From Acidobacteriota bacterium (GTDB lineage: Bacteria > Acidobacteriota > UBA890 > WLXD01), in NCBI GenBank assembly GCA_965248695.1, contig CBDFKD010000002.1:2048001-2112000 (forward strand): a DNA stretch of 64,000 nt, read 5' to 3'. The notes under the pieces were generated by a model. That model ran no database searches. It saw only the letters and a program-made list of their open reading frames with translations, and was not told the DNA's origin. Positions 2,394 to 20,788 of this stretch are shown here, piece after piece (position 1 is the first letter of the stretch; every line of letters begins with the position of its first letter). A program made the translations under genes and the position numbers.

Positions 2394-3218
2394 CTAGGAC
2401 TCTGAATCCCCGAAGCGGGCGTCGCGCCAGGCGATCGCCGCCTTCAGGCCGTCCTTGCGGGCGATGGCCATGAACTCCTCGCGTTCCGGAACCACCGCGG
2501 CCTCGATGAGCACGCCCATGTCGTGAGAGTCGCCGAGCGCCTCGCGCATACCCATGATGTCGTAGGTGCGATTGATCGCCTTCTTGGTAGTGGTCATCGA
2601 GAACGGGTCGATGACGGCGATCTTGCGCGCCATCTCCATCGCTGCATCGAGGTGCTCGCCTTCGCCCACCACCTTGTTGATCAGTCCCATCTGTAGACAC
2701 CGATCGGCCGACACTCGATCGTCACCGGTGAAGTACAGCTCCTTCGCCTGCTTGGGGCCGGTGAGCCAGGGGAGCAGCATCACCACCACCCCGGCGCCGA
2801 AGCGCAGATCGGGCTCGCCGAGCCTGAAGGTCTCGTCGGCAACGGTGAGATCGCAGGCGAGAGCAAGCTCGCAGCCGCCGGCGATGGCGTAGCCGTGCAC
2901 CGCCGAGATCGTCGGTTTTGGAAAGTTCCACAGCCGCATGATCGAGTCGAAGTCGCGCTGCAGCACCGGCGCGAGATCGACGACGTTGACGCTCCCTTCG
3001 TGCTCGGCCTCGTCCTTGAGGTCAAAGCCGGAGCAGAACGAGCGCCCGGCGCCGTGTAGGACGACGACGCGAACGTCGGCGTCCTTTTCGATCTGGTCGA
3101 GCACCGCGTCGAGGTCGTCGAGCAGCTGCTCGTTCATGGCGTTGAGCACCTGCGGCCGATTCAGCGTGATGACGCCAATCGGGCCGCGGCGCTCGTACTC
3201 GATGGTCTCGAAGGCCAT
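2394..3218 (-). CDS. Enoyl-CoA hydratase/isomerase (crotonase) family protein
   Basis: ITLNRPQVLNAM, FCSGFDL, AIAGGCELALACD; start taken at ATG 3218 (MAFETIEY). Confidence 0.9.
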   Translation of the reverse strand: MAFETIEYERRGPIGVITLNRPQVLNAMNEQLLDDLDAVLDQIEKDADVRVVVLHGAGRSFCSGFDLKDEAEHEGSVNVVDLAPVLQRDFDSIMRLWNFPKPTISAVHGYAIAGGCELALACDLTVADETFRLGEPDLRFGAGVVVMLLPWLTGPKQAKELYFTGDDRVSADRCLQMGLINKVVGEGEHLDAAMEMARKIAVIDPFSMTTTKKAINRTYDIMGMREALGDSHDMGVLIEAAVVPEREEFMAIARKDGLKAAIAWRDARFGDSES

Positions 3219-3293
3219 TGGGCTAGTCCTGTTCACGTGCGGCAAGCAGACGCGCGAAGCGCCTCGACCGCGATGGATGATCGGGTGCGCGCG

Positions 3294-3522
3294 CTATCCG
3301 TGACGGATCCAGGCCGACCTGTCGGGCCTAGCCATGTCGGATCCATGCCGACCTGTTCGGCCTAACCATGTCGGATCCACGCCGACTCATTCGGCCTAAC
3401 CATGTCGGATCCACGCCGACTCATTCGGCCTAACCATGTCGGATCCACGCCGACTCATTCGGCCTAACCATGTCGGATCCACGCCGACTCATTCGGCCTA
3501 ACCATGTCGGATCCACGCCGAC
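3294..3522 (-). repeat. Tandem array, period 34 bp: 7 copies of a 25-bp core (GTCGGCGTGGATCCGACATGGTTAG, the aldehyde dehydrogenase 3' end) with 9-bp linkers
   Basis: GGATCC recurs at 3305, 3339, 3373, 3407, 3441, 3475 and 3509. Five cores are identical, including the one in the gene (3498-3522); the two distal cores are diverged. Confidence 0.97.
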
Positions 3523-5015
3523 TTCGTGTCGGTGTAGTTCAGCAGGCTCTCGAAGCACTTGTCTTTGGCGTTGCCCGACTGCTTCATGCCGCCGAAGGGC
3601 TGCGTCATGTCGCCCTCGTCGAAACAGTTGACCCAGATCACCCCGGCCTCAATGTCGCGGATGAGCCGATGTGCGGTGTTCAGATCGCGCGTCCAGACGC
3701 CGGCCGCGAGCCCATAGACGGTGTCGTTAGCCACTGCCACCGCCTCATCGACGCCGTCGACCGGGATCACCCCGGTCACCGGTCCGAAGATCTCCTCGCG
3801 AGCGATCTTCATGTTGTTGTCGACGCCGGTGAACAGCGTCGGGTTGACGAACGCGCCGGCGGCGAGATCGCCGTCCGGGGCGTCGCCACCGAACTCGACC
3901 TTGGCACCCTCGCTCTTGCCGGCCTCGATGTAGCTCAGCACACGCTCCTGAGCCTCCGCCGTAACAAGGGGGCCCATGTTGGTCTCGGGGTCGAGCGGAT
4001 CACCCGGCTTGTAGGCGTCGCGTCCGCTGGCGACGAACTGCTCGACGAACTCATCGTGGATCGATCGGTCGACGAGCAGGCGGGAGCCTGCGTTACATAC
4101 CTCGCCCATGTTCGCGAAAATGCCGTGGAACGCCGCCGACACGGCCTGTCCCATGTCGGGCAGATCGCCCATGAAGATCTGCGGCGTCTTGCCGCCACAC
4201 TCCAGGGAGACGCGCTTCATGTTGGACTGTCCAGCGTACGTGAGGATCAGCTTGCCGACCTCGGTCGACCCGGTGAAGGTGATTTTGGCGACGTCATCGT
4301 GCAAGGCCAGGGCCTTGCCGGCCACCTCACCCATGCCATTGACGACGTTGAACACCCCGGGTGGTCCGCCGGCTTCGAGGAACAGCTCGGCAAGTCGGAC
4401 GCAGCTGAGCGGTGACTGTTCGGCCGGCTTGAGCACCACCGAGTTGCCCGCCGCCAGCGCCGGCGCCACTTTCCAGGTGGCCATCAGCAGCGGGTAGTTC
4501 CACGGCGAGATGGCGCCCACGACTCCGAGCGGCTGTCGCAGCGTGTAGTGCAGGACGTCGAATTCGGTGGCCGTCACGGTGCTCTCGATCTTGTCGATGC
4601 ACTCGCCGAAGTACTGGAACGTCTCGACGCACGCCGGCAGGTCCACGCCAATCACGTCGGAGATCGGCTTGCCCATGTCAAGCGTTTCGAGCACCGCGAG
4701 CTCCTCGGCGTGCTGGTCGATCAGCGCTGCGAGGTTGTAGAGCACCTGCATGCGCTCACGCGGTGCCATCTGTGACCAAGAGCCCGCACGAAAGGCGCGC
4801 AACGCAGAACTCACGGCAGCATCGACGTCCGCTTCCGTCCCGGCGGCGACTTCGGCGAACACTTCTCCGGTGGTCGGGTTGACGTTCTCGAACCGACCGC
4901 CGCGGATGGCATCAACGTGCTCGCCGTCGATGAACAGGCGCACCTCGGGCTTGACCGCATCGGCCACGGCGCGCCACCGGGCGCTGTCGTAGGTTTCGAC
5001 TGTGCTGAGGGCCAT
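3498..5015 (-). CDS. NAD(P)-dependent aldehyde dehydrogenase, PuuC/gamma-glutamyl-aminobutyraldehyde dehydrogenase-like
   Basis: SPWNYP, KPAEQSP, FTGSTEVGK, LECGGK, catalytic Cys in GEVCNA, EEIFGPV; AAGGAG RBS before ATG 5015. Confidence 0.9.
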   Translation of the reverse strand: MALSTVETYDSARWRAVADAVKPEVRLFIDGEHVDAIRGGRFENVNPTTGEVFAEVAAGTEADVDAAVSSALRAFRAGSWSQMAPRERMQVLYNLAALIDQHAEELAVLETLDMGKPISDVIGVDLPACVETFQYFGECIDKIESTVTATEFDVLHYTLRQPLGVVGAISPWNYPLLMATWKVAPALAAGNSVVLKPAEQSPLSCVRLAELFLEAGGPPGVFNVVNGMGEVAGKALALHDDVAKITFTGSTEVGKLILTYAGQSNMKRVSLECGGKTPQIFMGDLPDMGQAVSAAFHGIFANMGEVCNAGSRLLVDRSIHDEFVEQFVASGRDAYKPGDPLDPETNMGPLVTAEAQERVLSYIEAGKSEGAKVEFGGDAPDGDLAAGAFVNPTLFTGVDNNMKIAREEIFGPVTGVIPVDGVDEAVAVANDTVYGLAAGVWTRDLNTAHRLIRDIEAGVIWVNCFDEGDMTQPFGGMKQSGNAKDKCFESLLNYTDTKSAWIRHG

Positions 5016-5058: not shown

Positions 5059-6270
5059 CTAGAAACTGAGTATGGATGGGGGTGGGGTACGCGACTCGGG
5101 TAGGGCCAACTCCTCGGCCCAGCGCGGATCGAACGCGCCGCGATGGTAGGTATGGGCGACCATCGCCAGGTGATGATAAAGGGCCTCCTCGTCGTCTGAC
5201 AGCGGACCCGCTCGGTAGGCGCCCGTACGCATGCCGCGCTGCGCCCCCTCACAGACCGCCCAGTCTTGCTTGTTCGTGATGTCCCAGAAATCGCGCGCGT
5301 AGGATGGATCGAAGTCCTCCCGGGCGACGGCTGCGGGAGCGAACAGCCAGCGGCATTCGACCCGGGTGCGATCGGTGTCGAGCGGCTCGAGCGTATGCGT
5401 CAGGACGTAGTCGGGATGGGCGCTGATAAGCAGGTTCGGGAACAGCTCGAGATAGAGAATCTGCCGCAGCTGCGGCCCCACGAGACCCGGCAGCGGCTCG
5501 GCGCCGCTGGTGCCGGTAATCGACATCGTCTCGGCACCGGGCGCGATATCCATCGACCCGCCGACCCAGGCGCCATCGGGCTGCCACAGATAACCGCTGT
5601 CGGCGGGGCTGACCTGGCAAAGCTCGGGGTGAATCAGCGAGCAGTGATAGCACTCGTGGTAGTTCTCGATGATCAGCTTCCAGTTGGCGTTCACGACGTA
5701 GCTATCGCGCGCGCCCTCGACGAGCTCGTCGGCACCGTAGGCTGCCATCGCGGTATCGAGGCGGGCACCGGTGTAGGCAGCCAGATCGGCCGCTGATCCA
5801 GACGCGTTGACGAACAACCAGCCACCCCATTCCGCGACCGAAACGGGAACGAGACCGAAGTCGGCGGCTTCGAAGCTCGCCTCGTCGCAGTGCCGGGCGT
5901 TCAATAGCGTCCCGTCCAAAGCATAGGACCAGGCGTGATAGGGACACCGGATCGTGCCGGAGCTGCGTGACTCGCCGCAACCGATGAGCTCATGGCCGCG
6001 GTGGCTGCAGACGTTGAAGAATCCGCGCACGTCGCCGTCTTCAGCGCGGGTCAGCAGCACCTGCCTGCCACCGATCGAAACGCCGAGCTGCGCACCGGAC
6101 TCGCGCAGATCCAGAGCGCGGCCGACACACACCCACGCACCGCCGTACATGTGCTCCAGTTCCCACGCCAGGATCTCGGTCGAGGTGTAGGCCTCGCCGG
6201 GGAGCATGCGGCTGTCGCCGAACGGTGCAAGCACGGCCTGCAGCGCGAGTAACGGCAGTGGAGCGGACAT
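5059..6270 (-). CDS. Rieske non-heme iron oxygenase alpha subunit (GbcA/choline monooxygenase-like group)
   Basis: Rieske motif CSHRG...CPYHAW; mononuclear Fe motif NWKLIIENYHECYHC..IHP; distal QDW; start ATG 6270 assumed. Confidence 0.88.
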   Translation of the reverse strand: MSAPLPLLALQAVLAPFGDSRMLPGEAYTSTEILAWELEHMYGGAWVCVGRALDLRESGAQLGVSIGGRQVLLTRAEDGDVRGFFNVCSHRGHELIGCGESRSSGTIRCPYHAWSYALDGTLLNARHCDEASFEAADFGLVPVSVAEWGGWLFVNASGSAADLAAYTGARLDTAMAAYGADELVEGARDSYVVNANWKLIIENYHECYHCSLIHPELCQVSPADSGYLWQPDGAWVGGSMDIAPGAETMSITGTSGAEPLPGLVGPQLRQILYLELFPNLLISAHPDYVLTHTLEPLDTDRTRVECRWLFAPAAVAREDFDPSYARDFWDITNKQDWAVCEGAQRGMRTGAYRAGPLSDDEEALYHHLAMVAHTYHRGAFDPRWAEELALPESRTPPPSILSF

Positions 6271-6300: not shown

Positions 6301-6314
6301 TGAACGGCGGTTCA
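6301..6314. promoter_or_regulatory. Palindromic operator TGAAC-GGCG-GTTCA upstream of the Rieske/ALDH/crotonase unit
   Basis: Perfect 5-4-5 inverted repeat; same motif at 6432 and 12880, with a variant at 12979. Confidence 0.65.
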
Positions 6315-6431: not shown

Positions 6432-6445
6432 TGAATCGTCATTCA
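6432..6445. promoter_or_regulatory. Palindromic operator TGAAT-CGTC-ATTCA upstream of the aminotransferase
   Basis: Perfect 5-4-5 inverted repeat just downstream of the AT-rich -10-like TACTATTATGAT (6418-6429). Confidence 0.7.
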
Positions 6446-6469: not shown

Positions 6470-7849
6470 ATGGCCGAGACCACCGAGGCGACCGTCGACA
6501 CCCGAGGACGGCTCGCCGAGCTCGTCGAAGAGCAGGAGCGTATCTTTGTCGAGCGCCAGCCGAGATCGGGGGAGCTGTCGGCGCGGGCGCTTCGATCGCT
6601 GGCCGGAGGAACCACGTCGAGTTGGCAAATGTCTCGACCGCAGACCGTGTGGATCAGCCACGGCAAAGGGTCGAAGATCTACGACGTCGACGGCAACGAG
6701 TATGTCGACCTCCATGGCGGCTACGGAGTCGGCCTCGCCGGTCACGCACACCCGGCGCTGGTGCGCGCTGTGAGCGAGCGCGTCGCTCTCGGGACCCATT
6801 TCGCCCAACCGAACGACGACGCGATCATCGTCGCCGAGGAGCTGGCGCGACGATTCGACCAACCGCTCTGGCGTTTCACGAACTCCGGCACCGAATCGAC
6901 GCTCGATGCGTTCCACCTGATGCGCTGCGCCACCGGTCGGGACATCGTTCTCAAGGTCGAGGGCTGCTACCACGGTCACCACGACTCGGCGATGGTCTCG
7001 GTGGCCAACGAAGCGGACGAGATCGGGCCGATCGAACGACCACATAGTCCACAGGCCGGCAGCGGCTTGCCCACCGCGATTACCGATCTGACCTGGATCG
7101 TGCACTACAACGATCTGGAGATCGTTGAGCGCCTGCTGGTAGAGAACCCCGATCGAATCGCGGGGATGATCGTCGAGCCGATCATGCTGAATTCCGGCGT
7201 CATCGGTCCACACGACGGCTACTTGGCAGGCTTGAAGGAGCTGTTGCATCGTCACGGCGCGTTGTTGACGTTCGACGAGGTCAAGACGGGGCTCACCGTA
7301 GGCCCGGGAGGCGCAACCCGACGACTTGGCGTAACGCCCGACCTGATCACCCTTGCCAAGGCGATCGGTGGTGGCGTGCCGTGTGGCGCGGTTGGCGGCA
7401 GCGAAGCGGTGATGCGACTCATTGTCGATCAGGAGTATGAGCAGGTCGGCACGTTCAACGGCAATCCCCTGACCATGGCGGCGTGCCGGGCGATGCTCAC
7501 AGAGGTCCTCGACGACGATGGCCACGCGCATGTCGAATCGCTCCGAGAGCATATGCAGACCGGCATCGAGGCAATCATCGAGGAGTATGGGCTCGACGCC
7601 CACGTGATGGCTTTCGGGGCCAAGGGCTGTGTGACCTTCTGTGCCGAGCGCATCAGCAACTACCGAGAGTTCCTGGAAATCGACGGCGAGCTCAGCCATC
7701 TCCATTGCCTGGTGCAGCACAACGGCGGCGTGTTCCTGCCTCCGTGGGGCAAGGCCGAACAGTGGACGCTGTCGATTCAGCACACATCGGAAGACGCGCA
7801 GCTGTTGGTCGACAACTTCAGGACCTTCGCCCGGGCCATGACGCAGTGA
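6470..7849 (+). CDS. Class III PLP-dependent aminotransferase (glutamate-1-semialdehyde aminomutase-like fold, probably an amine transaminase)
   Basis: DVDGNEYVD, NSGTES, YHGHHD, FDEVKTG, PDLITLAKAIGGG (PLP Lys), GTFNGNP; GGGAG RBS. Confidence 0.88.
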   Translation: MAETTEATVDTRGRLAELVEEQERIFVERQPRSGELSARALRSLAGGTTSSWQMSRPQTVWISHGKGSKIYDVDGNEYVDLHGGYGVGLAGHAHPALVRAVSERVALGTHFAQPNDDAIIVAEELARRFDQPLWRFTNSGTESTLDAFHLMRCATGRDIVLKVEGCYHGHHDSAMVSVANEADEIGPIERPHSPQAGSGLPTAITDLTWIVHYNDLEIVERLLVENPDRIAGMIVEPIMLNSGVIGPHDGYLAGLKELLHRHGALLTFDEVKTGLTVGPGGATRRLGVTPDLITLAKAIGGGVPCGAVGGSEAVMRLIVDQEYEQVGTFNGNPLTMAACRAMLTEVLDDDGHAHVESLREHMQTGIEAIIEEYGLDAHVMAFGAKGCVTFCAERISNYREFLEIDGELSHLHCLVQHNGGVFLPPWGKAEQWTLSIQHTSEDAQLLVDNFRTFARAMTQ

Positions 7850-7913: not shown

Positions 7914-9014
7914 TTGAAGACAGGCCCGAAAGGCGAACATGGCGGCCATCTGCGCCTCAGTGGCCTGGTAAAGCGGTACGGCGACCTCACTGCCGTGCGT
8001 GACGTCGACCTCGAAGTAGCGCCCGGGGAGTTCTTTTCACTTCTCGGACCGTCGGGGTGCGGCAAGACCACCATGCTGCGCATGGTTGCCGGCTTCGAGC
8101 GACCGACCGCCGGCCGGATTTACCTCGATGGCGAGGATCTGTCGGAGACCCCGCCGCACAAGCGCAACGTCAACACGGTCTTTCAAAGCTACGCGCTGTT
8201 TCCACACCTCGACGTGGGCGAGAACGTCGGCTTCGGCCTGCGTTTTCGCGGCCTCCCGAAGACGGAGATCGGCGACCGCGTGAGGCAGGCGCTCGAGCTC
8301 GTGCAGATGGAGGCAATGATCGATAGGCGACCGACCAGGCTGTCCGGCGGACAACAGCAACGTGTCGCGCTAGCGCGCGCGTTGGTGCTCGATCCCGCCG
8401 TGCTGTTGCTCGACGAGCCGCTCGGCGCCCTCGACGCCCAGCTTAAGAAAACACTGCAAGTGGAGCTGAAGCGCATCCAGGAGCGCGTCGGGATTACCTT
8501 TGTGTACGTCACCCATGATCAGGAAGAAGCGCTGGCGCTGTCGGACCGCATGTGCGTCATGCACGAAGGCACGATTCGCCAGCTGGGTCCGCCGCGCGAG
8601 GTCTACGAGGAGCCGGCCAGCGCCTTCGTAGCAGACTTCCTGGGAGTCTCGAACGTAATCGACGCGGAGGCTGTCGGCCGCCACTCGGATGGCGGCTGTC
8701 GCGTGGCGATCGGGGGCAGCGAGCTGGTTGCCGGCAGCGGCGATGTCGACGCCAGCGGACCGGTGAAGATCATGCTTCGACCCGAGCGGCTGGAGATCGG
8801 GGCCGCCGACGCGTCGGGGCCTAACCAGCTGCTCGGCGAAGTAGAGCGGCTGGTGTACATGGGCTCGATCACGCAGATGTTCATCCAGCTCCACGGCGGC
8901 CAAACGGTGCAAGCCACGATCACCAATCGTGGCGACACACCGGCGCCTGCGAGGGGCAGCCGCGTGTCGGTGGGTCTGGCATCGTCCGCACTGCGCGTGC
9001 TCGCCAGCGACTGA
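7914..9014 (+). CDS. potA: Polyamine-type ABC transporter ATP-binding subunit (PotA-like)
   Basis: GPSGCGKTT, VNTVFQSYALFPHL, LSGGQQQRVALARAL, LLLDEPLGALD, C-terminal TOBE-like region. Confidence 0.88.
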   Translation: MKTGPKGEHGGHLRLSGLVKRYGDLTAVRDVDLEVAPGEFFSLLGPSGCGKTTMLRMVAGFERPTAGRIYLDGEDLSETPPHKRNVNTVFQSYALFPHLDVGENVGFGLRFRGLPKTEIGDRVRQALELVQMEAMIDRRPTRLSGGQQQRVALARALVLDPAVLLLDEPLGALDAQLKKTLQVELKRIQERVGITFVYVTHDQEEALALSDRMCVMHEGTIRQLGPPREVYEEPASAFVADFLGVSNVIDAEAVGRHSDGGCRVAIGGSELVAGSGDVDASGPVKIMLRPERLEIGAADASGPNQLLGEVERLVYMGSITQMFIQLHGGQTVQATITNRGDTPAPARGSRVSVGLASSALRVLASD

Positions 9015-13074: not shown

Positions 13075-15201
13075 ATGCCGGATACCGTCACCCTGCAATC
13101 GCGCTTGGCTCCCCTGCTTGCGGCACGATCCGTGGCGATCGTCGGTGCCAGCCAGCGGCCGGGATCCACCGGCCACACCATCGTTGCCGAGCTGAAAGTA
13201 GGCGGCTTCCAGGGCCCGATCTATCCGATCAACCCGGGCTACGACGAAGTTCAGGGTCTCGAGTGTTTCGCGTCACTCGATCAGCTCCCCGAGAGCGTCG
13301 ACCTGGTGATCCTCGGGGTCAAGAACTCGCTGCTCGAGAGCCAGCTACAGCTGGCGGCGGAGTACGACGCGCGCGCGGCGGTGATCTTCGCCAGCTGCTA
13401 CGAGGAGCCGCAGGACGGCGTGCCGTCACTCGCCAAACGGCTGGCCGACATTGCCAAATCGCATGGGATGCCCGTCTGTGGCGGTAACGGCATGGGGTTC
13501 TTCAACCTGGAGAACGGCCTCCGCGCCCTCGCCTACCCCGAGCTCGCCGATCTGAAGCTCGGGCCGATCACCTGGCTGAGTCATTCCGGATCGGCATACA
13601 CGGCGATGACCCACAACCAGCGCGGGCTGAAGTTCAACCTCGCGATCTCCGCCGGCATGGAGCTCGCCACCACCGTTTCCGACTACATGAAGTACGCGCT
13701 CGAGCTCGAGTCGACCGGCGCGATCGCGATATTCCTCGAGACGGTTCGCGATCCGGCGGGATTCCGGGAAGCGCTCGAGCTAGCCAACGCCCGGGACGTT
13801 CCGGTGGTCGTGCTGAAGACGGGACGCGAGGCACTGGCTCGGGAGCTGGTGGTAGCGCACTCCGGTGGGCTCGCCGGAGAGGACGGTGCCTACGAGGCAG
13901 TGTTTCGTGAATACTGCGTGACCCGGGTCGCCACCTTGAGCGAGATGGTCGACACGTTGGAGCTCTTGTGCGCGGGCCGCCGAGCCCACCCCGGCGGACT
14001 GGCGGCAATCCACGACTCGGGCGGCGAGCGCGCTCACCTGATCGACGTCGCGGCCGAGGTCGGCGTGCCGCTGGCACAGATCTCCGAGGCCACCGTGAGT
14101 CGCCTGGCTGCGACCCTCGATCCGGGCTTGCCTGCCGTCAACCCTGTCGACGCATGGGGCACAGGCGCCAACTACGAGGAGATCTTCAGCGAATGCATGC
14201 GCGCCCTGCTCGCAGACTCCGATACCGCCGCCCTCGGTTTCGTCGTTGACCTCGCCGACTACATTCACGACCCGGGCCAAGGCTACGACTTCATGGCGGC
14301 AGAGATCTTCCAGGGAACCGACAAGCCGGTTGCCGTCTTGAGCAACATGCCAGCCTCCATCCCGCAGGACTCGGCGACGCTGATCCGAGCCGCCGGTGTA
14401 CCGCTTCTCGAGGGGACCGATACCGGACTGGCGGCTTTTCGGGCGCTCTTCGAGCGCCGCGACTTCGCGGCACTTCCCCCCTTTGCTACACCCGATCCGG
14501 TCGCGGCCGATGTGCGCGGACGCTGGCGTCGGCGGCTCGGCAACACGGCGCCCTGGGGCGAGCGGGAGGGGCTGGCGCTACTGAGCGACTACGGCATTCC
14601 CGTTGCCGAGACCGAGACCGCATGCGGCGCCGAAGCGGCGCTGGCGGCAGCGGAGCGACTCGGGTGGCCGGTGGTGCTGAAGACGGCCGCTCCCGACATG
14701 GCTCACAAGTCAGACGTAGGCGGGGTTATCACGGGGCTCGATTCCGCCCCGGCGTTCGGGCGCGCGTGCGACGAGCTCATCGAGCGTCTGGGGCCCGATG
14801 TTCTAGTGCAGAGGATGGCGCGGGTTGGCGTAGAGCTGGCACTCGGAATCGTCCGCGACGCCCAGTTCGGCCCGTTGGTCATGGTGGCTAGCGGCGGCGT
14901 GCTGGTGGAGATTGTGCACGATCGGGCTTTCGCGTTGCCGCCGCTGGATGCAGCTCGCGCTGCACGCCTGCTGGACGGCCTGACGGCCCGCCGGCTGTTG
15001 GCAGGTGTCCGCGGCGCGGCGCCGGCGGATACCGACGCGGTCGTCGATGCGATGGTTCGGCTTTCGGTGCTCGCCGCGGATCTCGGCGACCTCGTCGATG
15101 GACTCGATATCAATCCGCTGATCGCCGGCCCCGATGGCTGCGTAGCGGTCGACGCCCTCGTTGTACCGCGAAGCGACGGGGGCTTGAAGGGACAGGATTA
15201 G
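13075..15201 (+). CDS. ADP-forming acyl-CoA synthetase (acetate-CoA ligase family, fused alpha/beta)
   Basis: SVAIVGAS, GGNGMG, SHSGS, phospho-His AHSGGLAG, NPVDAWG, HKSDVGGV, LDINPL ATP-grasp; start ATG 13075 (alternative 12982). Confidence 0.88.
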   Translation: MPDTVTLQSRLAPLLAARSVAIVGASQRPGSTGHTIVAELKVGGFQGPIYPINPGYDEVQGLECFASLDQLPESVDLVILGVKNSLLESQLQLAAEYDARAAVIFASCYEEPQDGVPSLAKRLADIAKSHGMPVCGGNGMGFFNLENGLRALAYPELADLKLGPITWLSHSGSAYTAMTHNQRGLKFNLAISAGMELATTVSDYMKYALELESTGAIAIFLETVRDPAGFREALELANARDVPVVVLKTGREALARELVVAHSGGLAGEDGAYEAVFREYCVTRVATLSEMVDTLELLCAGRRAHPGGLAAIHDSGGERAHLIDVAAEVGVPLAQISEATVSRLAATLDPGLPAVNPVDAWGTGANYEEIFSECMRALLADSDTAALGFVVDLADYIHDPGQGYDFMAAEIFQGTDKPVAVLSNMPASIPQDSATLIRAAGVPLLEGTDTGLAAFRALFERRDFAALPPFATPDPVAADVRGRWRRRLGNTAPWGEREGLALLSDYGIPVAETETACGAEAALAAAERLGWPVVLKTAAPDMAHKSDVGGVITGLDSAPAFGRACDELIERLGPDVLVQRMARVGVELALGIVRDAQFGPLVMVASGGVLVEIVHDRAFALPPLDAARAARLLDGLTARRLLAGVRGAAPADTDAVVDAMVRLSVLAADLGDLVDGLDINPLIAGPDGCVAVDALVVPRSDGGLKGQD

Positions 15202-15261: not shown

Positions 15262-16446
15262 ATGCAACCGACGCCGTTTCATTCGAGAACCGCGCCACTT
15301 TGCGCTAGCAACAGCTGGGTCGAGTGGGCCGGCTACCAGTCGGCGACCATGTACGAGCTCGAGCACACACACGAGTACCATGCGGTGCGCATGGCGGCGG
15401 CACTGTTCGACGTCTCGCCGCTGCACAAGTTCCACATTCAGGGGCCCTATGCCACGCGGTTGCTCGATCGTGTCTTGACGCGCGATGTCACCAGGTGCGC
15501 CGTTGGGCAGGTGATGTGCTCGGCCTGGTGCGATGACGCCGGGTACATCATCGACGACGGCGCGCTGGCGCGGCTGGAGGACAACCTCTACCGACTGACG
15601 ACTGCGGACCCCAGCCTCGCGTGGCTGGAGGACAACGGCTACGGCATGGACGTCGAGGTCCAGGACGTCTCCGAGTCGTTCGCCGCGCTGGCGCTCCAGG
15701 GCCCGACGTCGCGCGACCTGTTGCAGGCAGCCACGCGCGACGACATCTCCTCGCTCGGCTACTTCCGCGCTGCCGAGACCCGGATCGACAACGCCCGCGT
15801 GACGGTGACCCGCACCGGCTACACCGGCGACCTCGGCTACGAGGTATGGATCGCCCCCGACGACGCCGAAACGGTGTGGGACGTCCTCATTCACCACGGC
15901 AGCAGCTACGGGATGAAACCCGCCGGAACCATGGCGCTCGAAATGGCGCGCATCGAGGCCGGTCTGTTGCTCGCAGAAGTCGACTTCATCTCCAGTCGCA
16001 GGACGATCTTCGACGTGCAGAAGTCGACCCCGACAGAGCTCGGCCTCGGCTGGATGGTCCACCTCGACAAGCCCTTCTTCGTCGGCCAGGCGGCGCTGAA
16101 GGATGAACGAGCCCGTGGCCTGGCGTGGAACACCGTCGGCCTGGACGTCGACGTCATGGCCCTCGACGCCATCTATGCGGAATTCGGCATGCCCCTGCAG
16201 CTACCTTGGGAGGCCTGGAGCGAGGCGGTGCCGGTGTATATCGGTGGCAAGCAGGTGGGCAAGGCCACCAGCGGGATGTGGTCGCCCACCCTCAAGAAGT
16301 ACATCGCGCTGGCCCGGGTCCCGCCGCAGCACGCAGCGCTCGGCAGCGCTCTGGACATCGAGATGACGGTCGAGGCGGTGCGTCGAACGGTTCCGGCGAA
16401 GGTTGTCAAGACGCCGTTCTTCAATCCGGCGAGGAAACGGTCATGA
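15262..16446 (+). CDS. GcvT/aminomethyltransferase-family folate-binding protein (stand-alone)
   Basis: EYHAVR..AALFDVSPL, IIDDG, ALQGPTSR, RTGYTGDLGYEVW, ARIEAGL, PFFNP; no gcvH/gcvP nearby. Confidence 0.88.
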   Translation: MQPTPFHSRTAPLCASNSWVEWAGYQSATMYELEHTHEYHAVRMAAALFDVSPLHKFHIQGPYATRLLDRVLTRDVTRCAVGQVMCSAWCDDAGYIIDDGALARLEDNLYRLTTADPSLAWLEDNGYGMDVEVQDVSESFAALALQGPTSRDLLQAATRDDISSLGYFRAAETRIDNARVTVTRTGYTGDLGYEVWIAPDDAETVWDVLIHHGSSYGMKPAGTMALEMARIEAGLLLAEVDFISSRRTIFDVQKSTPTELGLGWMVHLDKPFFVGQAALKDERARGLAWNTVGLDVDVMALDAIYAEFGMPLQLPWEAWSEAVPVYIGGKQVGKATSGMWSPTLKKYIALARVPPQHAALGSALDIEMTVEAVRRTVPAKVVKTPFFNPARKRS

Positions 16447-18044
16447 GCGCCGCCGTTCATGGCACGACCAAGTACGACGCCATCGTCGTTGGCGGTGGAC
16501 ACAACGGCTTGACCACGGCCGCCTATCTGGCCAAGGCGGGGCGCAAGGTGCTGGTGCTCGAGCGCCGCCACATCCTCGGCGGCGCGGCGGTGAGCGAAGA
16601 GGTGTTCCCCGGCTTTACTTTCACCGTCTGTTCGTACGTCGTGAGCCTGCTGCGACCGGAAGTCATCCGCGAACTCGACCTCCCCAAGCACGGCCTACAG
16701 GTCATCCCGCTGACCGGGGCGTTCACGCCCATGGAGGATGGCAACTACATCGCCTTCTGGCCCGACGCATTCAGCACGCGCGAGGAGATCAAGCGGCACT
16801 CGGTACGCGACGCCGACCGGTACGAAGAGTTCAACCAGCTGATGTACGAGATGGCCTACGCGGTGAAGCCGATTCTCGGCATGGTGCCGCCCGACCTGGT
16901 ATCGCCGAGCCTGCGCGATATCAACACCTTGCGTGAGCTGTCCCGGCACATGAAGGGACTCGGCAAGCGCAAGTTCCACTACCTCCACAAGATCATGACG
17001 ATGAGCGCGGCCGACTTCCTCGCCGAGTTCTTCGAGACCGACGTCATGAAGGCCGCGATGTCGATCAGCGGCATCATCGGCACCATGCTGGGTCCCTGCT
17101 CGCCGGGCACCGCCTACGTGCTGCTGCACCACTACATGGGCGAGCTCGACGGTGCTTTCACCGCCTGGGGCTCCCAAAAGGGAGGCACCGGGGGAGTGAG
17201 CGAGGCGCTGGCCAGCGCCGCCCGCGGTCACGGCGCCGAGACGCGCTGCAGTGCCACGGTCGAGAAAGTGATCGTCGAGAACGGACGCGCGATCGGCGTG
17301 GCACTCGAGAGTGGCGAGGAGATTCGTGCCGACGTGGTGGTCTCCGGGTGCGACCCCAAGGTCACGTTCCTGAAGCTGCTCGATCGCAAAGACCTCCCCG
17401 CCGACCTCGTCGAGTCGATCGAGCGGTTCAAGTTCCGGGGCTCGTCGGGAAAGGTCAACCTGGCGCTCGACGGGCTACCGGTTTTCTCCGCCGCTCCCGA
17501 TCCCACCTACCTGCACGGCATCGGCATGGTGGAGATCGCGCCTAGCCTCGCCTACATGGAAAAAGCGTACGACGAGGCCAAGTACGGCGGCTTCTCGAGC
17601 CGGCCGTACATGGATGTCGTCGTTCCGACCGCCGTCGACCCGTCGATGGCGCCGCCGGGCAAGCACGTCATGTCGATCTTCGTGCAGTACGCCAACTACG
17701 AGCTCGAGAACAGCACTTGGGGGGACGAGCGCGAGAACTTCGGTGACGCGGTCATCGACACGCTGGCCGAGTTCTCGCCCAACCTCAAGGACATGATCCT
17801 GCACCGCCAGGTGCTCTCACCGTGGGATATCGAGAAGGAGTTCGCGCTCACCACCGGCAACATCTTCCAGGGCGAGCTCACCCTCGATCAGCTGTTCTTC
17901 CTGCGACCCGCCGCAGGCTGGGCGCAGCACCGAACACCGATCCGTAACTACTACCAGTGCGGTTCAGGCACCCATCCCGGAGGTGGGATCACGGGCGGCC
18001 CCGGCCGACTCGCGGCACTCGAAATTCTCCGGGGGACAAGCTGA
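16443..18044 (+). CDS. Phytoene dehydrogenase-like FAD/NAD(P) oxidoreductase (COG1233/PYROXD2-like), subunit 1
   Basis: YDAIVVGGGHNGLTTAAYLA, PGTAYVLLHHYMGE, GNIFQGELTLDQLFFLRP, CGSGTHPGGG; ATGA overlap with the GcvT-like stop. Confidence 0.88.
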   Translation: MSAAVHGTTKYDAIVVGGGHNGLTTAAYLAKAGRKVLVLERRHILGGAAVSEEVFPGFTFTVCSYVVSLLRPEVIRELDLPKHGLQVIPLTGAFTPMEDGNYIAFWPDAFSTREEIKRHSVRDADRYEEFNQLMYEMAYAVKPILGMVPPDLVSPSLRDINTLRELSRHMKGLGKRKFHYLHKIMTMSAADFLAEFFETDVMKAAMSISGIIGTMLGPCSPGTAYVLLHHYMGELDGAFTAWGSQKGGTGGVSEALASAARGHGAETRCSATVEKVIVENGRAIGVALESGEEIRADVVVSGCDPKVTFLKLLDRKDLPADLVESIERFKFRGSSGKVNLALDGLPVFSAAPDPTYLHGIGMVEIAPSLAYMEKAYDEAKYGGFSSRPYMDVVVPTAVDPSMAPPGKHVMSIFVQYANYELENSTWGDERENFGDAVIDTLAEFSPNLKDMILHRQVLSPWDIEKEFALTTGNIFQGELTLDQLFFLRPAAGWAQHRTPIRNYYQCGSGTHPGGGITGGPGRLAALEILRGTS

Positions 18045-19630
18045 TGGCCGATCGATACGACGTTGTCGTGATCGGCGGCGGCCACAACGGTCTGGTCGCG
18101 GCGTCCTACCTGGCGAAGGCGGGACGGAGCGTACTGGTCCTCGAACGACGTGAAGTAGTGGGCGGCATCGCGGTCACCGAGGAGCTGATCCCGGGTTACC
18201 GATTCTCGACCTGCGCCGATGCCGCATCGTCGTATCTGGCACCGGAGATCGCTGCCGATCTCGGCCTGTCGAGCCACGGCCTCGAGACCATCGAGGCAGA
18301 TCCGGTACTGCTGTCACCGCAGCCGGACGGGAGCTGCCTGCGGTTCTGGCGCGACACGGCCCGCACCGCCTCCGAGATCGAGCGCTATAGCACCGCGGAC
18401 GCGGAATACTATCCGCAGTTCGTCGATCTGATGCAGCGTCTCACCGGCATGCTTTACGGCCTGCTGGCCGTGACCCCTCCGGACATCCCGGATGTGAGCG
18501 GCCGTGATCTGGTCAGCATGCTCGGCCTGCTGGGGCCATTGCGGAAAATGGGGCGCAAGAACATCCCGGAGCTCGCGCGCGTGCTGCCGATGCCGGCGGC
18601 CGACCTGCTCAACGAGTGGTTCGAGTCGGGTGTCGTGAAGGGCGCCATCGCCGCCAGCGGGGTGCGCGCGATGACCTGGGGTCCTCGGGAGGCGGGCACG
18701 GCCTATCTGCTGCTGCACCGCTGGGCCTGCAGCGACACCGATCTGTTCCGTTCCGGATCGCTGGTGCGCGGCGGCGCCGGCAAGCTGACCGCGGCACTCG
18801 CAGCGGCGGCGCGCGACGCTGGCGTCGAGATCCGTACCGGGGAGCCCGTCGCCGCCATCGACCACATCGCCGGAGCGGCCACCGGAGTCTCACTGCAGAG
18901 CGGTGCGTCGATCGCCGCCGACATCGTCGTGTCAGGCGCGTCGCCCCGCACCACCCTCCTGGCGCTGCTCGACCCGACACGCATGCCAGCCGCCACAGTT
19001 CAGCACGCGCGCAACATCAAGTACCGGGGATCCAGCGCCCGTCTGCACCTGGCGCTGAGCGCCTTGCCGGAATTCGTGGGCATCGAGGAGAGCGAGCTGC
19101 GCGCCAGCGGCCACGTTCAAATCGCCCCGACGATAGACTATCTCCAGCGCGCCTACGATCACGCCAAGTACGGCGAGATGTCAGAGCGACCTTACCTCGA
19201 CATCTCGATCCCGTCGGCAGTCGACGACTCGCTCTCGCCTGCAGGTCACCACACGATGTCGATCGCCGTGCAGTACGCGCCGTACCACATTGACGGCGGC
19301 TGGAGCGCAGACCAGCGAGCACGACTGTTGGACACCGTGATGACGACACTGAACGAGTATGCGCCAAGAACCGGCGACCTCGTCGTGGACTCCTGTCTGC
19401 TGACCGCGGCCGATCTGGAGGCGCTTTTCGATCTTCCGGAGGGCAACCTCCACCATGGCGAGATGACCCTCGATCAGCTGCTGTTCATGCGGCCGATCCC
19501 GGGCTCGGCCCGCTACCGTGCGCCGATCGAGAACGTCTGGTTATGTGGGTCCGGGTCGCATCCGGGCGGCGTGCTGACCGGTCTGCCCGGACGCAACGCC
19601 GCACGTCAGATCCTGTCTGGGCGGCCCTGA
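18044..19630 (+). CDS. Phytoene dehydrogenase-like FAD oxidoreductase (COG1233), subunit 2
   Basis: YDVVVIGGGHNGLVAASYLA, GNLHHGEMTLDQLLFMRP, CGSGSHPGG; TGATG coupling to the previous gene. Confidence 0.88.
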   Translation: MADRYDVVVIGGGHNGLVAASYLAKAGRSVLVLERREVVGGIAVTEELIPGYRFSTCADAASSYLAPEIAADLGLSSHGLETIEADPVLLSPQPDGSCLRFWRDTARTASEIERYSTADAEYYPQFVDLMQRLTGMLYGLLAVTPPDIPDVSGRDLVSMLGLLGPLRKMGRKNIPELARVLPMPAADLLNEWFESGVVKGAIAASGVRAMTWGPREAGTAYLLLHRWACSDTDLFRSGSLVRGGAGKLTAALAAAARDAGVEIRTGEPVAAIDHIAGAATGVSLQSGASIAADIVVSGASPRTTLLALLDPTRMPAATVQHARNIKYRGSSARLHLALSALPEFVGIEESELRASGHVQIAPTIDYLQRAYDHAKYGEMSERPYLDISIPSAVDDSLSPAGHHTMSIAVQYAPYHIDGGWSADQRARLLDTVMTTLNEYAPRTGDLVVDSCLLTAADLEALFDLPEGNLHHGEMTLDQLLFMRPIPGSARYRAPIENVWLCGSGSHPGGVLTGLPGRNAARQILSGRP

Positions 19631-20788
19631 ATGTACCGACTGAGCGAGGCCGATCGCGCGATTCAGACACGGGCGCGGACCTTCGTGCAGCAGGAGCTGA
19701 TTCGACACGAGGAGTACGCCGAGTCACACGACGGCGAGTTGCCTGCGGGAGTGCAGGAAGCGCTGCACGCGCGCGTCCTGGAGCTCGGCTTCGGGGCGAT
19801 GAACATGCCCGAAAGTCTCGGGGGCCCAGGCTACAGCTATCTGCAACAGACGCTGATCTCCGAGCAGATCGGGGCGGTGACCAACGGGCTGGGATGGGTC
19901 GTCTGGACGCCGCCGGAGTGGATCGCCGACGTTGCCACTCAGCACCAGCTCGACACCTGGATCATTCCGACGGTCAAGGGCGGCCGCAGCGAGTGCTACG
20001 CGATCACCGAAGAGGGCGCCGGATCGGACGTCGACGCCATCGAGTCGACGGCGATCCGCGACGACGACAGCTACGTGCTCAACGGCGTCAAGTGGCACGT
20101 CACCTCGTACAACCACGCCGACTATCTGTTCTTCCAGGGGAAGCTACCGGCGGGCGAACACGCGCTGTTCTTCGTCGACATCGACACTCCGGGCGTCAGC
20201 GTCCTCCGCACGCCGGCTTACTCGCACACCTACTCGCACCATCACCCGATCGTGAGCTTCGCAGACGTTCGCGTGCCGGCAGCGAATCTGGTCGGCAATG
20301 AAGGTGACGGCATGCAGTACGCCCACGCCTGGTTCCGCTACGAGCGGCTGATGATCGCCGCCCGATGCTGCGGCGCCGCCGAGCGATTGATCGACGAAGC
20401 CTCGGCCTTCGCAAAGCGGCGCATCGCCTACGGCCGACCGATCTCGGAATACCAGGCGATCCAATTCATGCTGGCCGACTCGGTCACCGAGCTGTGGGCG
20501 GCGCGTCTGATGACCTACGAGACGGCGCGCGAGATCGACGCCAACGCCGACGTCAAGCTGCAACATGCGCAATGCTCGATGGCGAAGCTGTACGCCTCGG
20601 AGATGGCCAATCGGGTGGCCGATCGCGCCGTGCAGGTGTTCGGTGGACGCGGTTACATGCGCGAGAACGTCGCCGAGCGTTTCTTCCGCGAGCTGCGCGT
20701 CGACCGCATCTGGGAGGGTACATCGGAGATCCAGCGGCTGATTATCGCGGCGCAGCTGCTCAAGCGAGGTAGCAGCGTTGTCGGCTAG
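19631..20788 (+). CDS. Acyl-CoA dehydrogenase
   Basis: YAITEEGAGSD, LNGVKW, YQAIQFMLAD, SMAKLYASE, QVFGGRGY, RIWEGTSEIQR. Confidence 0.92.
   Translation: MYRLSEADRAIQTRARTFVQQELIRHEEYAESHDGELPAGVQEALHARVLELGFGAMNMPESLGGPGYSYLQQTLISEQIGAVTNGLGWVVWTPPEWIADVATQHQLDTWIIPTVKGGRSECYAITEEGAGSDVDAIESTAIRDDDSYVLNGVKWHVTSYNHADYLFFQGKLPAGEHALFFVDIDTPGVSVLRTPAYSHTYSHHHPIVSFADVRVPAANLVGNEGDGMQYAHAWFRYERLMIAARCCGAAERLIDEASAFAKRRIAYGRPISEYQAIQFMLADSVTELWAARLMTYETAREIDANADVKLQHAQCSMAKLYASEMANRVADRAVQVFGGRGYMRENVAERFFRELRVDRIWEGTSEIQRLIIAAQLLKRGSSVVG

Follow-up and report, generated by a model that had tools for sequence, protein, structure and literature searches.

The 64-kb stretch of Acidobacteriota DNA analysed here, referred to as the window, contains an island at positions 2394–20788 in which genes for an amine importer are combined with N-demethylation genes and CoA-thioester genes. 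Every member of the gene list in the original prediction was located in this island by Pfam, NCBIfam and start-codon analysis, and two paralogous CrtI-family flavoprotein genes (16443–19630) missing from that list were identified, translationally coupled and flanked by the genes for the GcvT-like protein and an acyl-CoA dehydrogenase (ACAD). The absence of PuuA and PuuD that had been claimed also held, with no glutamine-synthetase-like or class-I amidotransferase domain found by Pfam in sets of 20 and 29 larger ORFs.

Reverse-strand genes at the left-hand end encode a Rieske non-haem-iron oxygenase alpha subunit (5059–6270; Pfam Rieske and Ring_hydroxyl_A), an NAD(P)-dependent aldehyde dehydrogenase (ALDH) of the amino-aldehyde/betaine-aldehyde type (3498–5015; Pfam Aldedh at 2e-165) with an ATG start and an AAGGAG ribosome-binding site, and a crotonase of the enoyl-CoA hydratase family (2394–3218; Pfam ECH_1 at 3e-45). 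The Rieske oxygenase was assigned to the GbcA/Stc2/CntA N-demethylase clade; it scored 205 bits on the GbcA model (cut-off 670) and matched the solved structures 3vca and 4qup at 155 bits each and carnitine monooxygenase 6y8j at 143 bits, and no Rieske reductase partner was found within the island. The ALDH reached 547 bits on the PuuC model (cut-off 850) and 499 bits on the BADH model (cut-off 669). Its 3' end and stop codon are duplicated in a 34-bp tandem repeat of 6.5 copies (3304–3523; TRF score 368, 94% matches). This repeat appears specific to the source genome; none was present in the crotonase–ALDH spacer of the related locus L004, and the stretches from L005 and L006 covered only part of that spacer.

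On the forward strand lie genes for a class-III aminotransferase (6470–7849; Pfam Aminotran_3) and a PotA-type ABC ATPase with a TOBE domain (7914–9014), the latter passing TIGR01187 at 379.5 bits (cut-off 355.6). The aminotransferase matched GSAM structures at about 250 bits, beta-transaminase at 174 and putrescine aminotransferase at 110, and was placed in the GSAM/beta-transaminase subgroup and not among known polyamine types; assignment as a putrescine/GABA type was rejected on these scores. The remaining importer genes, on the reverse strand, encode PotC-like (9086–9967) and PotB-like (9964–10875) permeases, whose genes overlap and which both carry BPD_transp_1 and score below the equivalog cut-offs (PotC 186 bits; PotB 168 bits), and a divergent PotD/PotF-class periplasmic binding protein (10868–12133; SBP_bac_8 at 6e-20) with a twin-arginine motif and a lipobox at its N-terminus. 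Also on the reverse strand is the gene for a TetR-family repressor with a BetI-type C-terminal domain (12226–12861; TetR_N and TetR_C_6), which scored 88.7 bits on the BetI model (cut-off 201).

The right-hand operon, on the forward strand, comprises an ADP-forming (ACD-superfamily) acyl-CoA synthetase, or ligase (13075–15201; CoA_binding_2, Succ_CoA_lig and ATP-grasp_5), orthologues of which match the longer ORF from residue 30 onwards, a GcvT-family folate-binding protein (15262–16446; GCV_T and GCV_T_C), the flavoprotein FAD1 (16443–18044), the FAD oxidoreductase FAD2 (18044–19630) and a short/medium-chain-type ACAD (19631–20788; three ACAD domains). FAD1 and FAD2, both assigned by Pfam and NCBIfam to the CrtI/CrtO family with an amine-oxidase domain, are paralogues at 43% identity and account for 3.2 kb of this operon. 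There is a 4-nt overlap between the GcvT stop and the FAD1 start and one of 1 nt between the FAD1 stop and the FAD2 start, and the ACAD start abuts the FAD2 stop, so that ligase, GcvT, FAD1, FAD2 and ACAD form a row of overlapping or abutting genes. Full synteny of the island was found in all four Acidobacteriota MAG loci compared (L004–L007). Directly downstream of it, a gene for an outer-membrane beta-barrel protein with a CarboxypepD_reg domain (21013–24066, forward strand; Pfam) is syntenic in the same four loci at 83–84% identity; the protein is a possible outer-membrane entry route, and it is uncertain whether its gene belongs to the island.

The palindrome TGAAY-N4-RTTCA occurred three times in the 64-kb window against 0.08 expected, a count that none of 100 shuffles reached, and all three sites fell within the two divergent intergenic (promoter) regions, as the claim that one operator motif links these genes had it. 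The sites are TGAACGGCGGTTCA (6301–6314) and TGAATCGTCATTCA (6432–6445), which precede the start codons of the Rieske and aminotransferase genes by 31 and 25 nt, respectively, and the perfect palindrome TGAACAGTTGTTCA (12880–12893), flanked by the TetR gene and the ligase operon. L004–L007 each have three sites in the same relative places; their half-sites are conserved and their centres vary. The motif was also found three times on a Shinella zoogloeoides plasmid with a homologous TetR (L123), namely before the Rieske gene, in the aminotransferase/permease gap and in the TetR/FAD1 gap, and L039 and L050 carry it beside TetR. Since the operator is common to the island genes and the ligase-to-ACAD genes overlap or abut, the earlier claim of a single linked, regulon-like unit is supported.

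The original prediction interpreted this unit as a nitrogen analogue of DmdABCD, with the GcvT-like protein, ligase, ACAD and crotonase in the roles of DmdA, DmdB, DmdC and DmdD, direct methyl transfer to folate, and release of the amine by hydration of 3-amino-acryloyl-CoA. All four enzyme families are indeed present under one operator, and simple beta-elimination would leave no need for the ACAD that is coupled to the ligase operon. However, the GcvT-like protein scored 115 bits on the DmdA model (cut-off 410) and 288 bits on the Tdm model, and its closest match was the C-terminal (folate) domain of TMAO demethylase (PDB 9q5a, 185 bits). Its gene not only overlaps FAD1 but also travels with flavoproteins elsewhere: in 18 well-flanked metagenome loci where FAD1 identity was at least 45%, a GcvT gene within 4 kb was present in 13 and a second FAD paralogue in 13. 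As this module is conserved with two flavoproteins, the GcvT-like protein would be the folate partner of the flavoproteins rather than a stand-alone methyltransferase, and the best interpretation of the module is an N-demethylase linked to folate. FAD1 was about 70% identical to homologues that included sources named as Chloroflexi/Anaerolineae MAGs, and matched CrtI (PDB 4dgk) at only 72 bits.

The ligase also departs from the DmdABCD scheme, being ADP-forming and of the DddX family and not of the AMP-forming type; its relevant solved relative is DddX, from the DMSP cleavage route, and not DmdB. It aligned over its full length with DddX, an ATP-dependent DMSP lyase (7cm9, 245 bits), and also matched 9y43 (251 bits) and 8wzu (237 bits); it is as close to DddX as to any other solved enzyme. 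PMC8163506 assigns DddX His292 as the phosphohistidine and Trp391 and Phe435 as cation-pi residues; these align with His262, Trp361 and a Phe in the ligase, whereas Glu432, the proposed general base of DddX, aligns with a Gly. The Trp distinguishes both enzymes from the 3HP and 4HB ligases, in which Gly or Val takes its place, but an aromatic residue there is not exclusive to the island ligase, as the paralogue L002 has Trp and a SAR116 orthologue Phe.

The crotonase gave generic family matches only (best solved match 4k29, 276 bits). Its first catalytic Glu is intact (GGCELALACD) and the second is Asp, so the reported LGEPDLRFG motif stands; the hint of non-standard chemistry drawn from it is weak, since PE is found in the closest solved structure and in orthologues at greater distance and the Glu-to-Asp replacement is a lineage-specific change within one genus. 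Among 301 genomes sampled from the phylum, a crotonase orthologue was present in 4 of 4 from the genus, 0 of 6 from the family's other genera and one of the remaining genomes. Because the orthologue is thus confined to one genus within the family, most of the close comparisons are not independent. The lineage-specific motif, together with the occurrence of crotonase and ligase without an ACAD match in L008, G254 and the SAR116 variant-2 loci examined, adds to the evidence against the DmdABCD analogy, which we consider unlikely. What survives of the nitrogen-analogue proposal is a CoA-dependent breakdown route for some N-methylated amine, still the best reading.

The GcvT and two-flavoprotein module was often accompanied elsewhere by a Rieske oxygenase, a class-III aminotransferase, a Pot-like importer and a BetI-type TetR, and Rieske, aminotransferase, Pot-like ABC and TetR genes occur with FAD1–FAD2–GcvT on plasmids of three cultured species (Shinella zoogloeoides, Fuscovulum ytuae and Parasedimentitalea marina). 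It could be argued that ordinary unmethylated polyamines (spermidine, norspermidine, 1,3-diaminopropane) are the substrate, with FAD1/FAD2 cleaving secondary amines like polyamine oxidases and the GcvT-like and Rieske proteins accessory or unrelated. The Pot-type importer and the amine-oxidase domain in both flavoproteins fit such a substrate, as do acetylpolyamine-amidohydrolase-like genes in two related clusters; the Parasedimentitalea cluster has an HDAC-like gene, and in Paracoccaceae La 6 an acetylpolyamine amidohydrolase gene lies beside an aminotransferase–PuuC–CoA ligase–CrtI-like row without GcvT. This is nevertheless quite improbable, as the flavoproteins are tightly and widely coupled to a folate-binding GcvT and to GbcA/Stc2-class Rieske oxygenases, a signature of C1 (N-methyl) removal; moreover, the repressor is of the BetI type and the binding protein is far from PotD (81 bits; cut-off 582) and PotF (62 bits). 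The binding proteins of look-alike clusters were just 24–38% identical to that of the island and may therefore bind other ligands.

Pairing of an ADP-forming CoA ligase with a crotonase was a second recurring module. Five SAR116-order genomes (L008 and four of ten regions fetched) combine crotonase and ligase with potCBAD-like genes and a DAO flavoprotein, and L008 also has an aminotransferase; the predicted co-occurrence of CoA genes with pot-like genes was thus found elsewhere. A HIBADH-like gene adjoins the crotonase in four of five crotonase–Rieske–ligase loci, a methylmalonyl-CoA mutase gene lies near the ligase–crotonase pair in G254, and a gene annotated 'DMSP lyase family' ends the Fuscovulum cluster, all of which hint at a three-carbon acryloyl-CoA route.

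These hints run counter to a carnitine/gamma-butyrobetaine-type route for a quaternary betaine of four or more carbons, in which the ligase would be BcoAB-like and the ACAD and crotonase CaiA/CaiD-like, or the ACAD would, like BbuA, eliminate the amine to give crotonyl-CoA, leaving the released or remaining methylamine to the demethylases. Precedents exist in PMC8364193, where BcoAB is an ATP-dependent gamma-butyrobetaine:CoA ligase and the ACAD-like BbuA frees trimethylamine from gamma-butyrobetainyl-CoA. In the source genome itself, a BCCT transporter, a carnitine-type 3-hydroxyacyl-CoA dehydrogenase and BKACE are encoded beside a paralogous crotonase–ligase pair, which links this ligase class to betaine-type acids, and Shinella sumterensis carries a single crotonase–ligase–3HCDH–FAD1-like–GcvT row and also BKACE. 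Yet no 3-hydroxyacyl-CoA/carnitine dehydrogenase, BKACE or BCCT was found in the island by Pfam among the ORFs scanned, and a free betaine would not need the aminotransferase and ALDH. The crotonobetainyl-CoA dehydrogenase model gave just 162 bits (cut-off 540); the best NCBIfam match of the ACAD was the acryloyl-CoA reductase AcrC (215 bits; cut-off 640), and its best PDB matches were generic ACADs and CarC (about 193 bits). A carnitine-type route is accordingly judged doubtful.

Ligase, ACAD, crotonase and ALDH were each found near the flavoprotein module in none of the 18 metagenome loci, making its fusion with CoA genes in the island an exception. This, and the generic sequences of the ACAD and crotonase, could be interpreted as an amine-demethylation module lying by chance beside ordinary short-chain acyl-CoA genes with no common substrate. 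Such an arrangement is very unlikely, given that ligase, GcvT, FAD1, FAD2 and ACAD form one overlapping row, that the crotonase gene follows the ALDH gene by about 60 nt in the Rieske operon of relatives, that every unit starts at an operator-bearing region, and that ligase–flavoprotein–GcvT adjacency recurs independently in Shinella sumterensis and in L040 (FAD1–GcvT–ligase). In its make-up, the island is a mosaic whose modules recur across phyla.

With moderate confidence we favour one TetR-controlled catabolic unit for an imported cationic amine with N-methyl groups. The polyamine-related genes in the Parasedimentitalea and Paracoccaceae La 6 clusters speak for it as well. Weighing against it are the rarity of the fusion with CoA genes, the low identity of the look-alike binding proteins, the Gly in place of DddX Glu432, the occurrence of aromatic residues at the Trp391 position in other ligases, the generic matches of the ACAD and crotonase, the subgroup of the aminotransferase, the absence of a Rieske reductase partner from the island and the non-independence of most close comparisons. 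Gene content is the sole observed part of the proposed flow, and from it we infer the substrate, the order and every step. Import would proceed via the outer-membrane barrel and the Pot-like ABC system, and binding of the compound to the BetI-type TetR would release the operators preceding the Rieske–ALDH–crotonase, aminotransferase–PotA, TetR–PotDBC and ligase–GcvT–FAD1–FAD2–ACAD units. By way of the aldehyde, aminotransferase and ALDH would turn a terminal primary amine into the carboxylate, yielding an N-substituted beta-alanine or GABA-type acid from which the DddX-family ADP-forming ligase would form the CoA thioester. C–N cleavage of this thioester might then occur by beta-elimination to acryloyl-CoA, as by DddX with DMSP, with an AcuH-like role for the crotonase; alternatively, desaturation by the ACAD might be followed by crotonase hydration, as in DmdC/DmdD. 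N-methyl groups would be removed oxidatively by the Rieske oxygenase in the manner of GbcA/Stc2 and also by the FAD1/FAD2 pair, with the GcvT-like protein passing the C1 unit to tetrahydrofolate. Candidates for the compound are N-methylated polyamines and diamines, together with closely related omega-amino compounds that would turn into betaine-like acids.

In summary, this soil Acidobacterium most likely possesses a repressor-controlled gene set for importing a methylated amine or polyamine-like compound, moving its methyl groups to folate and degrading the remainder as a CoA thioester, a route that appears to be undescribed so far.

Gene mapping of the window from the ORF listing, Pfam and NCBIfam matches and start codon inspection confirmed every gene family named in the original prediction, and identified two paralogous flavoproteins of the CrtI/CrtO family (FAD1 and FAD2) that had been missed, both of which carry amine-oxidase domains. 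Genes for the crotonase (2394–3218), aldehyde dehydrogenase (ALDH; 3498–5015) and Rieske oxygenase (5059–6270) lie on the minus strand, followed on the plus strand by a class III aminotransferase (6470–7849) and PotA (7914–9014). PotC (9086–9967), PotB (9964–10875), the PotD-like binding protein (10868–12133) and a BetI-type TetR regulator (12226–12861) return to the minus strand, and the plus strand then encodes an ADP-forming acyl-CoA synthetase (hereafter the ligase; 13075–15201), a GcvT-like protein (15262–16446), FAD1 (16443–18044), FAD2 (18044–19630), an acyl-CoA dehydrogenase (ACAD; 19631–20788) and an outer-membrane barrel protein (21013–24066). The GcvT stop and FAD1 start overlap by 4 nt, the FAD1 stop and FAD2 start by 1 nt, and the FAD2 stop is abutted by the ACAD start. 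The crotonase gene follows the ALDH gene by approximately 60 nt in related metagenome-assembled genome (MAG) loci, and the island was therefore read as four transcription units, each starting at an operator-bearing region.

The ALDH–crotonase spacer of the window is widened to approximately 280 nt and holds a 34-bp tandem repeat (3304–3523; 6.5 copies, 94% identity), the unit of which is a copy of the last ALDH codons and stop codon. The repeat was missing from the related MAG locus L004, the one relative with its whole spacer read (L005 and L006 were seen for parts of the spacer), and was rejected as a regulatory feature of the island. A 690-residue ORF that converges on the crotonase gene (79–2151) had no Pfam or NCBIfam match. 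Further along the window, two large sulfatase-TPR fusion proteins in tandem are followed by a TPR protein (25470–30791), a sodium:solute symporter is flanked by two DAO-family FAD oxidoreductases, possibly forming a further unit for the oxidation of amines or amino acids (32567–37656), and at 49260–51644 an IS-type integrase with rve domains (49260–50288) adjoins an animal haem peroxidase-domain protein (50496–51644).

The proposal that a single operator motif links the island genes was borne out. The palindrome TGAAY-N4-RTTCA occurred at three sites in the 64 kb (6301, 6432 and 12880) against 0.08 expected, a count reached in none of 100 shuffles, and the sites were confined to two divergent promoter regions, one between the Rieske and aminotransferase genes and one between the TetR and ligase genes. 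Exactly three palindromes with conserved half-sites and variable centres were present at equivalent positions in each of four related Acidobacteriota MAG loci (L004–L007). A plasmid locus of Shinella zoogloeoides (L123) likewise has three copies, one ahead of the Rieske gene, one in the aminotransferase–permease gap and one in the TetR–FAD1 gap, and the motif adjoins the TetR gene in two other compared loci (L039 and L050). The TetR protein carries the BetI-type C-terminal domain TetR_C_6 and scored 88.7 bits on the BetI equivalog TIGR03384, under the cut-off of 201. Operator and repressor form a defined putative pair that is usable for ligand screening.

A Pot-type ABC importer, a PuuC-like ALDH and a class III aminotransferase are shared with the Puu/Spu routes and their PotABCD/PotFGHI uptake systems, and the ATPase exceeded the cut-off of the PotA-subfamily model TIGR01187 (379.5 bits vs 355.6). 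In contrast to Puu/Spu, ALDH, PotB, PotC and PotD all scored under equivalog cut-offs, with the binding protein reaching 81 bits of the 582 required for PotD and 62 of the 636 for PotF, and the aminotransferase falls in a different subgroup, GSAM/beta-transaminase (GSAM 250 bits, beta-transaminase 174, putrescine aminotransferase 110). In agreement with the absence noted previously, none of the 49 window ORFs scanned carried a PuuA or PuuD Pfam domain. The best NCBIfam match of the Rieske oxygenase was GbcA and its best PDB matches were the demethylases 3vca (stachydrine demethylase Stc2) and 4qup and the carnitine monooxygenase 6y8j, with scores far under the equivalog cut-offs of N-demethylating or C-N-cleaving oxygenases of the GbcAB/Stc2/CntAB type. 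No reductase gene for this oxygenase lies within the island, and the ACAD gave generic matches only.

A second candidate demethylating activity is encoded by the GcvT-like protein and its flavoprotein neighbours. The GcvT-like protein best matched the C-terminal folate domain of TMAO demethylase (288 bits in NCBIfam; 185 bits in PDB). Glycine-cleavage T proteins came next, alongside the folate domains carried by dimethylglycine oxidase/dehydrogenase and by sarcosine oxidase. Coupling of the GcvT-like gene to FAD1 through the overlapping stop and start places the set in a working class, as distinct from a curated family, of folate-coupled flavoprotein N-demethylases, for which the most economical reading is that the flavoprotein would oxidise an N-methyl amine and the folate protein accept the C1 unit. 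This arrangement of a GcvT-like folate domain (as in Tdm, DMGDH, DMGO and SoxA) with an amine-oxidising partner is known from TMAO demethylase, dimethylglycine oxidase/dehydrogenase and heterotetrameric sarcosine oxidase. Unlike these DAO-family enzymes, the island flavoproteins belong to the CrtI/phytoene-desaturase family and are two paralogues (43% identity) on separate polypeptides.

Homologues of FAD1 number in the thousands. The best 120 share 67–92% identity with it, are annotated merely as 'phytoene dehydrogenase-like' or 'NAD(P)/FAD-dependent oxidoreductase' and include few named organisms, which are Chloroflexi/Anaerolineae MAGs. Among solved structures the best match is CrtI, with just 72 bits, and we found no characterised member of the family. 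The function of this orphan pair, approximately 70% identical to homologues in other phyla, is a question of wider interest. The family may be related to human PYROXD2. Associations of the PYROXD2 locus are described with urinary trimethylamine (PMC3169529) and with plasma dimethylamine (PMC8777681). The window itself holds a second set with a CrtI-family flavoprotein (40668–46808; flavoprotein 45207–46808, minus strand), near a zinc alcohol dehydrogenase, an AMP-forming ligase (42460–43980) and a linalool-dehydratase/isomerase-family protein (40668–42608).

A metagenome scan returned 79 loci. In 66 of them the flavoprotein match spanned 40% or more of the query, and 18 of the 66 made up a well-flanked set (FAD1 identity of at least 45%; flanking sequence of at least 1.5 kb at one end and 1.8 kb at the opposite end). 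The second FAD paralogue was adjacent in 13 of these 18 loci and a GcvT gene lay within 4 kb in 13, while Rieske, aminotransferase and PotA genes were each found in three and a window-related ligase, ACAD, crotonase or ALDH in none of the 18. Rieske genes are also present in L012, L016 and L036, short-flank loci excluded from this count. Pfam annotation of ten metagenome loci placed the module in varied settings, adjoining APC permeases (L018, L022 and L030), a formyltransferase-family gene (Formyl_trans_N; L018), a DDAH/arginine-deiminase-family gene (L030), BetI-type TetR, Rieske and aminotransferase genes (L036 and L039), or seemingly unrelated genes (L011, L032 and L042). In L030 (5099–10609), a GcvT-FAD1-FAD2-Rieske row is preceded by the APC permease, an M20 peptidase and the DDAH/arginine-deiminase-family gene, an order that may point to methylated arginine or dimethylamine as an input.

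Forty-six records of a plasmid collection matched FAD1 and six were inspected. Shinella zoogloeoides ATCC 19623 carries, in order, genes for a Rieske protein, an aminotransferase, two permeases and an ATPase, a binding protein, TetR, FAD1, FAD2, an aminomethyltransferase, a hypothetical protein and an NADH:flavin oxidoreductase. Fuscovulum ytuae has TetR, aminotransferase, FAD1, FAD2, aminomethyltransferase, two Rieske genes, a 'polyamine ABC transporter' set, a 'DMSP lyase family protein' and an amidohydrolase, and Parasedimentitalea marina has a similar set with an HDAC-family gene and a BKACE gene in addition. The locus of Shinella sumterensis reads LysR, crotonase, acetate-CoA-ligase-family gene, 3-hydroxyacyl-CoA dehydrogenase, FAD1-like gene and GcvT, then aldolase and BKACE, and that of Paracoccaceae La 6 reads aminotransferase, PuuC, AMP-forming ligase and CrtI-like flavoprotein, beside an acetylpolyamine amidohydrolase. 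On plasmid pAMI1 of Paracoccus aminophilus the FAD1 homologue stands alone, 9 kb from an aminomethyltransferase gene. Identities of these look-alikes to the window proteins were moderate (FAD1 45–50%, GcvT 29–39%, binding proteins 24–31%), and S. zoogloeoides ATCC 19623, S. sumterensis, F. ytuae and P. marina provide cultured, tractable hosts of the modules.

The ligase has the CoA_binding_2, Succ_CoA_lig and ATP-grasp_5 domains (Pfam) of the ADP-forming ACD superfamily, and its best solved relatives were the ADP-forming 3-hydroxypropionate ligase (251 bits), DddX (245 bits) and the 4-hydroxybutyrate ligase (237 bits). DddX is described as an ATP-dependent DMSP lyase of Psychrobacter sp. D2 in this superfamily (PDB 7CM9), in which DMSP is ligated to CoA and dimethyl sulfide and acryloyl-CoA are then released; the residues described are the phosphohistidine His292, Trp391 and Phe435 as cation-pi contacts of the sulfonium, and Glu432 as the proposed base, and transporters for onium compounds adjoin dddX (PMC8163506). 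In our sequence alignment, the chain numbering of which agrees with PMC8163506, the two enzymes align end to end over the three domains, ligase His262 falls at His292, and the cation-pi pair appears to be retained as Trp361 at Trp391 and a Phe at Phe435. The Trp391 position is Gly or Val in the 3-hydroxypropionate and 4-hydroxybutyrate ligases. Trp is kept in acidobacterial orthologues (L004 and L007) and replaced by Phe in an orthologue from SAR116, and two paralogues in the window's genome have Trp and Thr, respectively. Glu432 corresponds to Gly in the ligase, within a gapped loop; an experimentally active DddX-like enzyme of Roseobacters is reported likewise to lack an equivalent (PMC13543886), and this residue may therefore not be essential.

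The island also has a crotonase that could act as AcuH. Identity to DddX is only approximately 30%, DddX is no closer than the 3-hydroxypropionate and 4-hydroxybutyrate ligases, and the island context of amine importer, aminotransferase and N-demethylases differs from the dddT/dddB/dddC setting. As the host is a soil Acidobacterium, a nitrogen onium or amine substrate is likelier than DMSP.

Pairing of the ligase with a crotonase extends beyond the island. In the SAR116 locus L008 the crotonase is divergent from the ligase (47% and 40% identity), and in G254, another Acidobacteriota genome, the two are in tandem beside an S9 peptidase and a methylmalonyl-CoA mutase. The ligase was present in 13 of 151 genomes of the order of the SAR116 genome. 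Ten of these regions were fetched: four combined crotonase and ligase with potCBAD-like genes and a DAO flavoprotein, five, from marine Alphaproteobacteria, had a compact crotonase-Rieske-ligase set beside an Opp-type ABC importer (L117, L118 and L120–L122), with a HIBADH-like dehydrogenase adjoining the crotonase in four of the five, and one had the ligase alone on a short contig. A crotonase orthologue (E ≤ 1e-60) was found in six of 301 Acidobacteriota genomes sampled, namely the window's genome, all four other members of its genus and one distant genome, and in none of six genomes from other genera of the family. Among the genomes covered, the full island is therefore restricted to the genus, so that the four syntenic MAGs do not count as independent evidence.

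Elsewhere in the window's genome, a BCCT transporter is followed by a 3-hydroxyacyl-CoA dehydrogenase-family gene, a crotonase, an ADP-forming ligase and BKACE (L097; G000:C2:3268500-3288400), which looks like a catabolic set of the carnitine/gamma-butyrobetaine type with the same ligase class. BcoAB is a two-subunit ADP-forming enzyme. It is described as an ATP-dependent gamma-butyrobetaine:CoA ligase, and the ACAD-like BbuA as splitting trimethylamine off gamma-butyrobetainyl-CoA (PMC8364193). The island is comparable to CaiABCD, BcoAB and BbuABC, where an onium acid is activated as a CoA thioester before an ACAD-type enzyme and a crotonase act (PMC8364193), and the paralogous cluster has the same ligase and crotonase families. 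Unlike these systems, the island has an aminotransferase and ALDH ahead of the ligase step and is without carnitine dehydrogenase, BKACE, CoA transferase or BCCT genes.

The original prediction had cast the island as a nitrogen analogue of DmdABCD, with which it does share a GcvT-family protein, a CoA ligase, an ACAD and a crotonase in one gene set. The GcvT-like protein reached 115 bits on the DmdA model (NCBIfam NF009133; cut-off 410), the ligase is ADP-forming in contrast to the AMP-forming DmdB, and the island GcvT gene is coupled to two flavoproteins, as is not the case in DmdABCD. Crotonases of the DmdD type have two catalytic glutamates. The island crotonase retains the first and has Asp at the second position, a PD motif that had been taken to hint at non-standard chemistry. 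Within the genus, four of five genomes have Asp here; in the fifth (G130; L094, contig C126) the pattern is reversed, the first residue being Asn (GGCNLALACD) and the second Glu. Both residues are Glu in G254, in SAR116 and in 4k29, the closest solved structure. The PD motif is thus a change within the genus and was rejected as the mark of a distinct enzyme class. With neither DmdA nor DmdB matched and the PD motif not a family trait, the DmdABCD framing fails, and what survives of the earlier idea is its general part, a CoA-dependent amine route.

Taken together, these gene relationships support a single putative regulon whose genes would import a cationic amine, turn an amine end into an acid, N-demethylate in two different ways and carry out CoA-thioester chemistry that a DddX-family ligase initiates. 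The favoured substrate would be an N-methylated polyamine, diamine or relative, the oxidised end of which would become an N-substituted beta-alanine or GABA, with the C-N bond cleaved on the CoA thioester. For a three-carbon version that yields acryloyl-CoA there are faint hints in relatives, in the HIBADH-like gene, the methylmalonyl-CoA mutase and the 'DMSP lyase family' gene. The paralogous cluster L097, the S. sumterensis locus and the precedent described for BbuA (PMC8364193) lend support to a four-carbon, carnitine-like version.

Joining these elements, N-methylated polyamines could be degraded by iterative unzipping of their N-methylated aminopropyl/aminobutyl chains, with C-N cleavage by a DddX-family enzyme and folate-linked demethylation, although as a complete scheme we consider this improbable. 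In each round the terminal amine would be transaminated and oxidised to an N-substituted beta-alanine, the DddX-family enzyme would ligate CoA and then eliminate acryloyl-CoA, and crotonase and ACAD would dispose of the latter, while the exposed N-methylamine would be demethylated onto folate by a heteromeric CrtI-family flavoprotein and the GcvT-like protein. Searches of open-access papers and bioRxiv returned nothing relevant on the island gene combination and no description of bacterial breakdown of N-methylated polyamines or related methylated amines, which is not proof of absence. If true, such unzipping would give the ATP-dependent DMSP lyase its first nitrogen counterpart and a very widespread orphan flavoprotein family a biochemical function. 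The occurrence of an importer, two-tier demethylation and a DddX-family CoA ligase in one operator-controlled unit therefore suggests that nitrogen compounds, too, may be handled by the chemistry known from DMSP cleavage, in which the onium group is lost after CoA activation.
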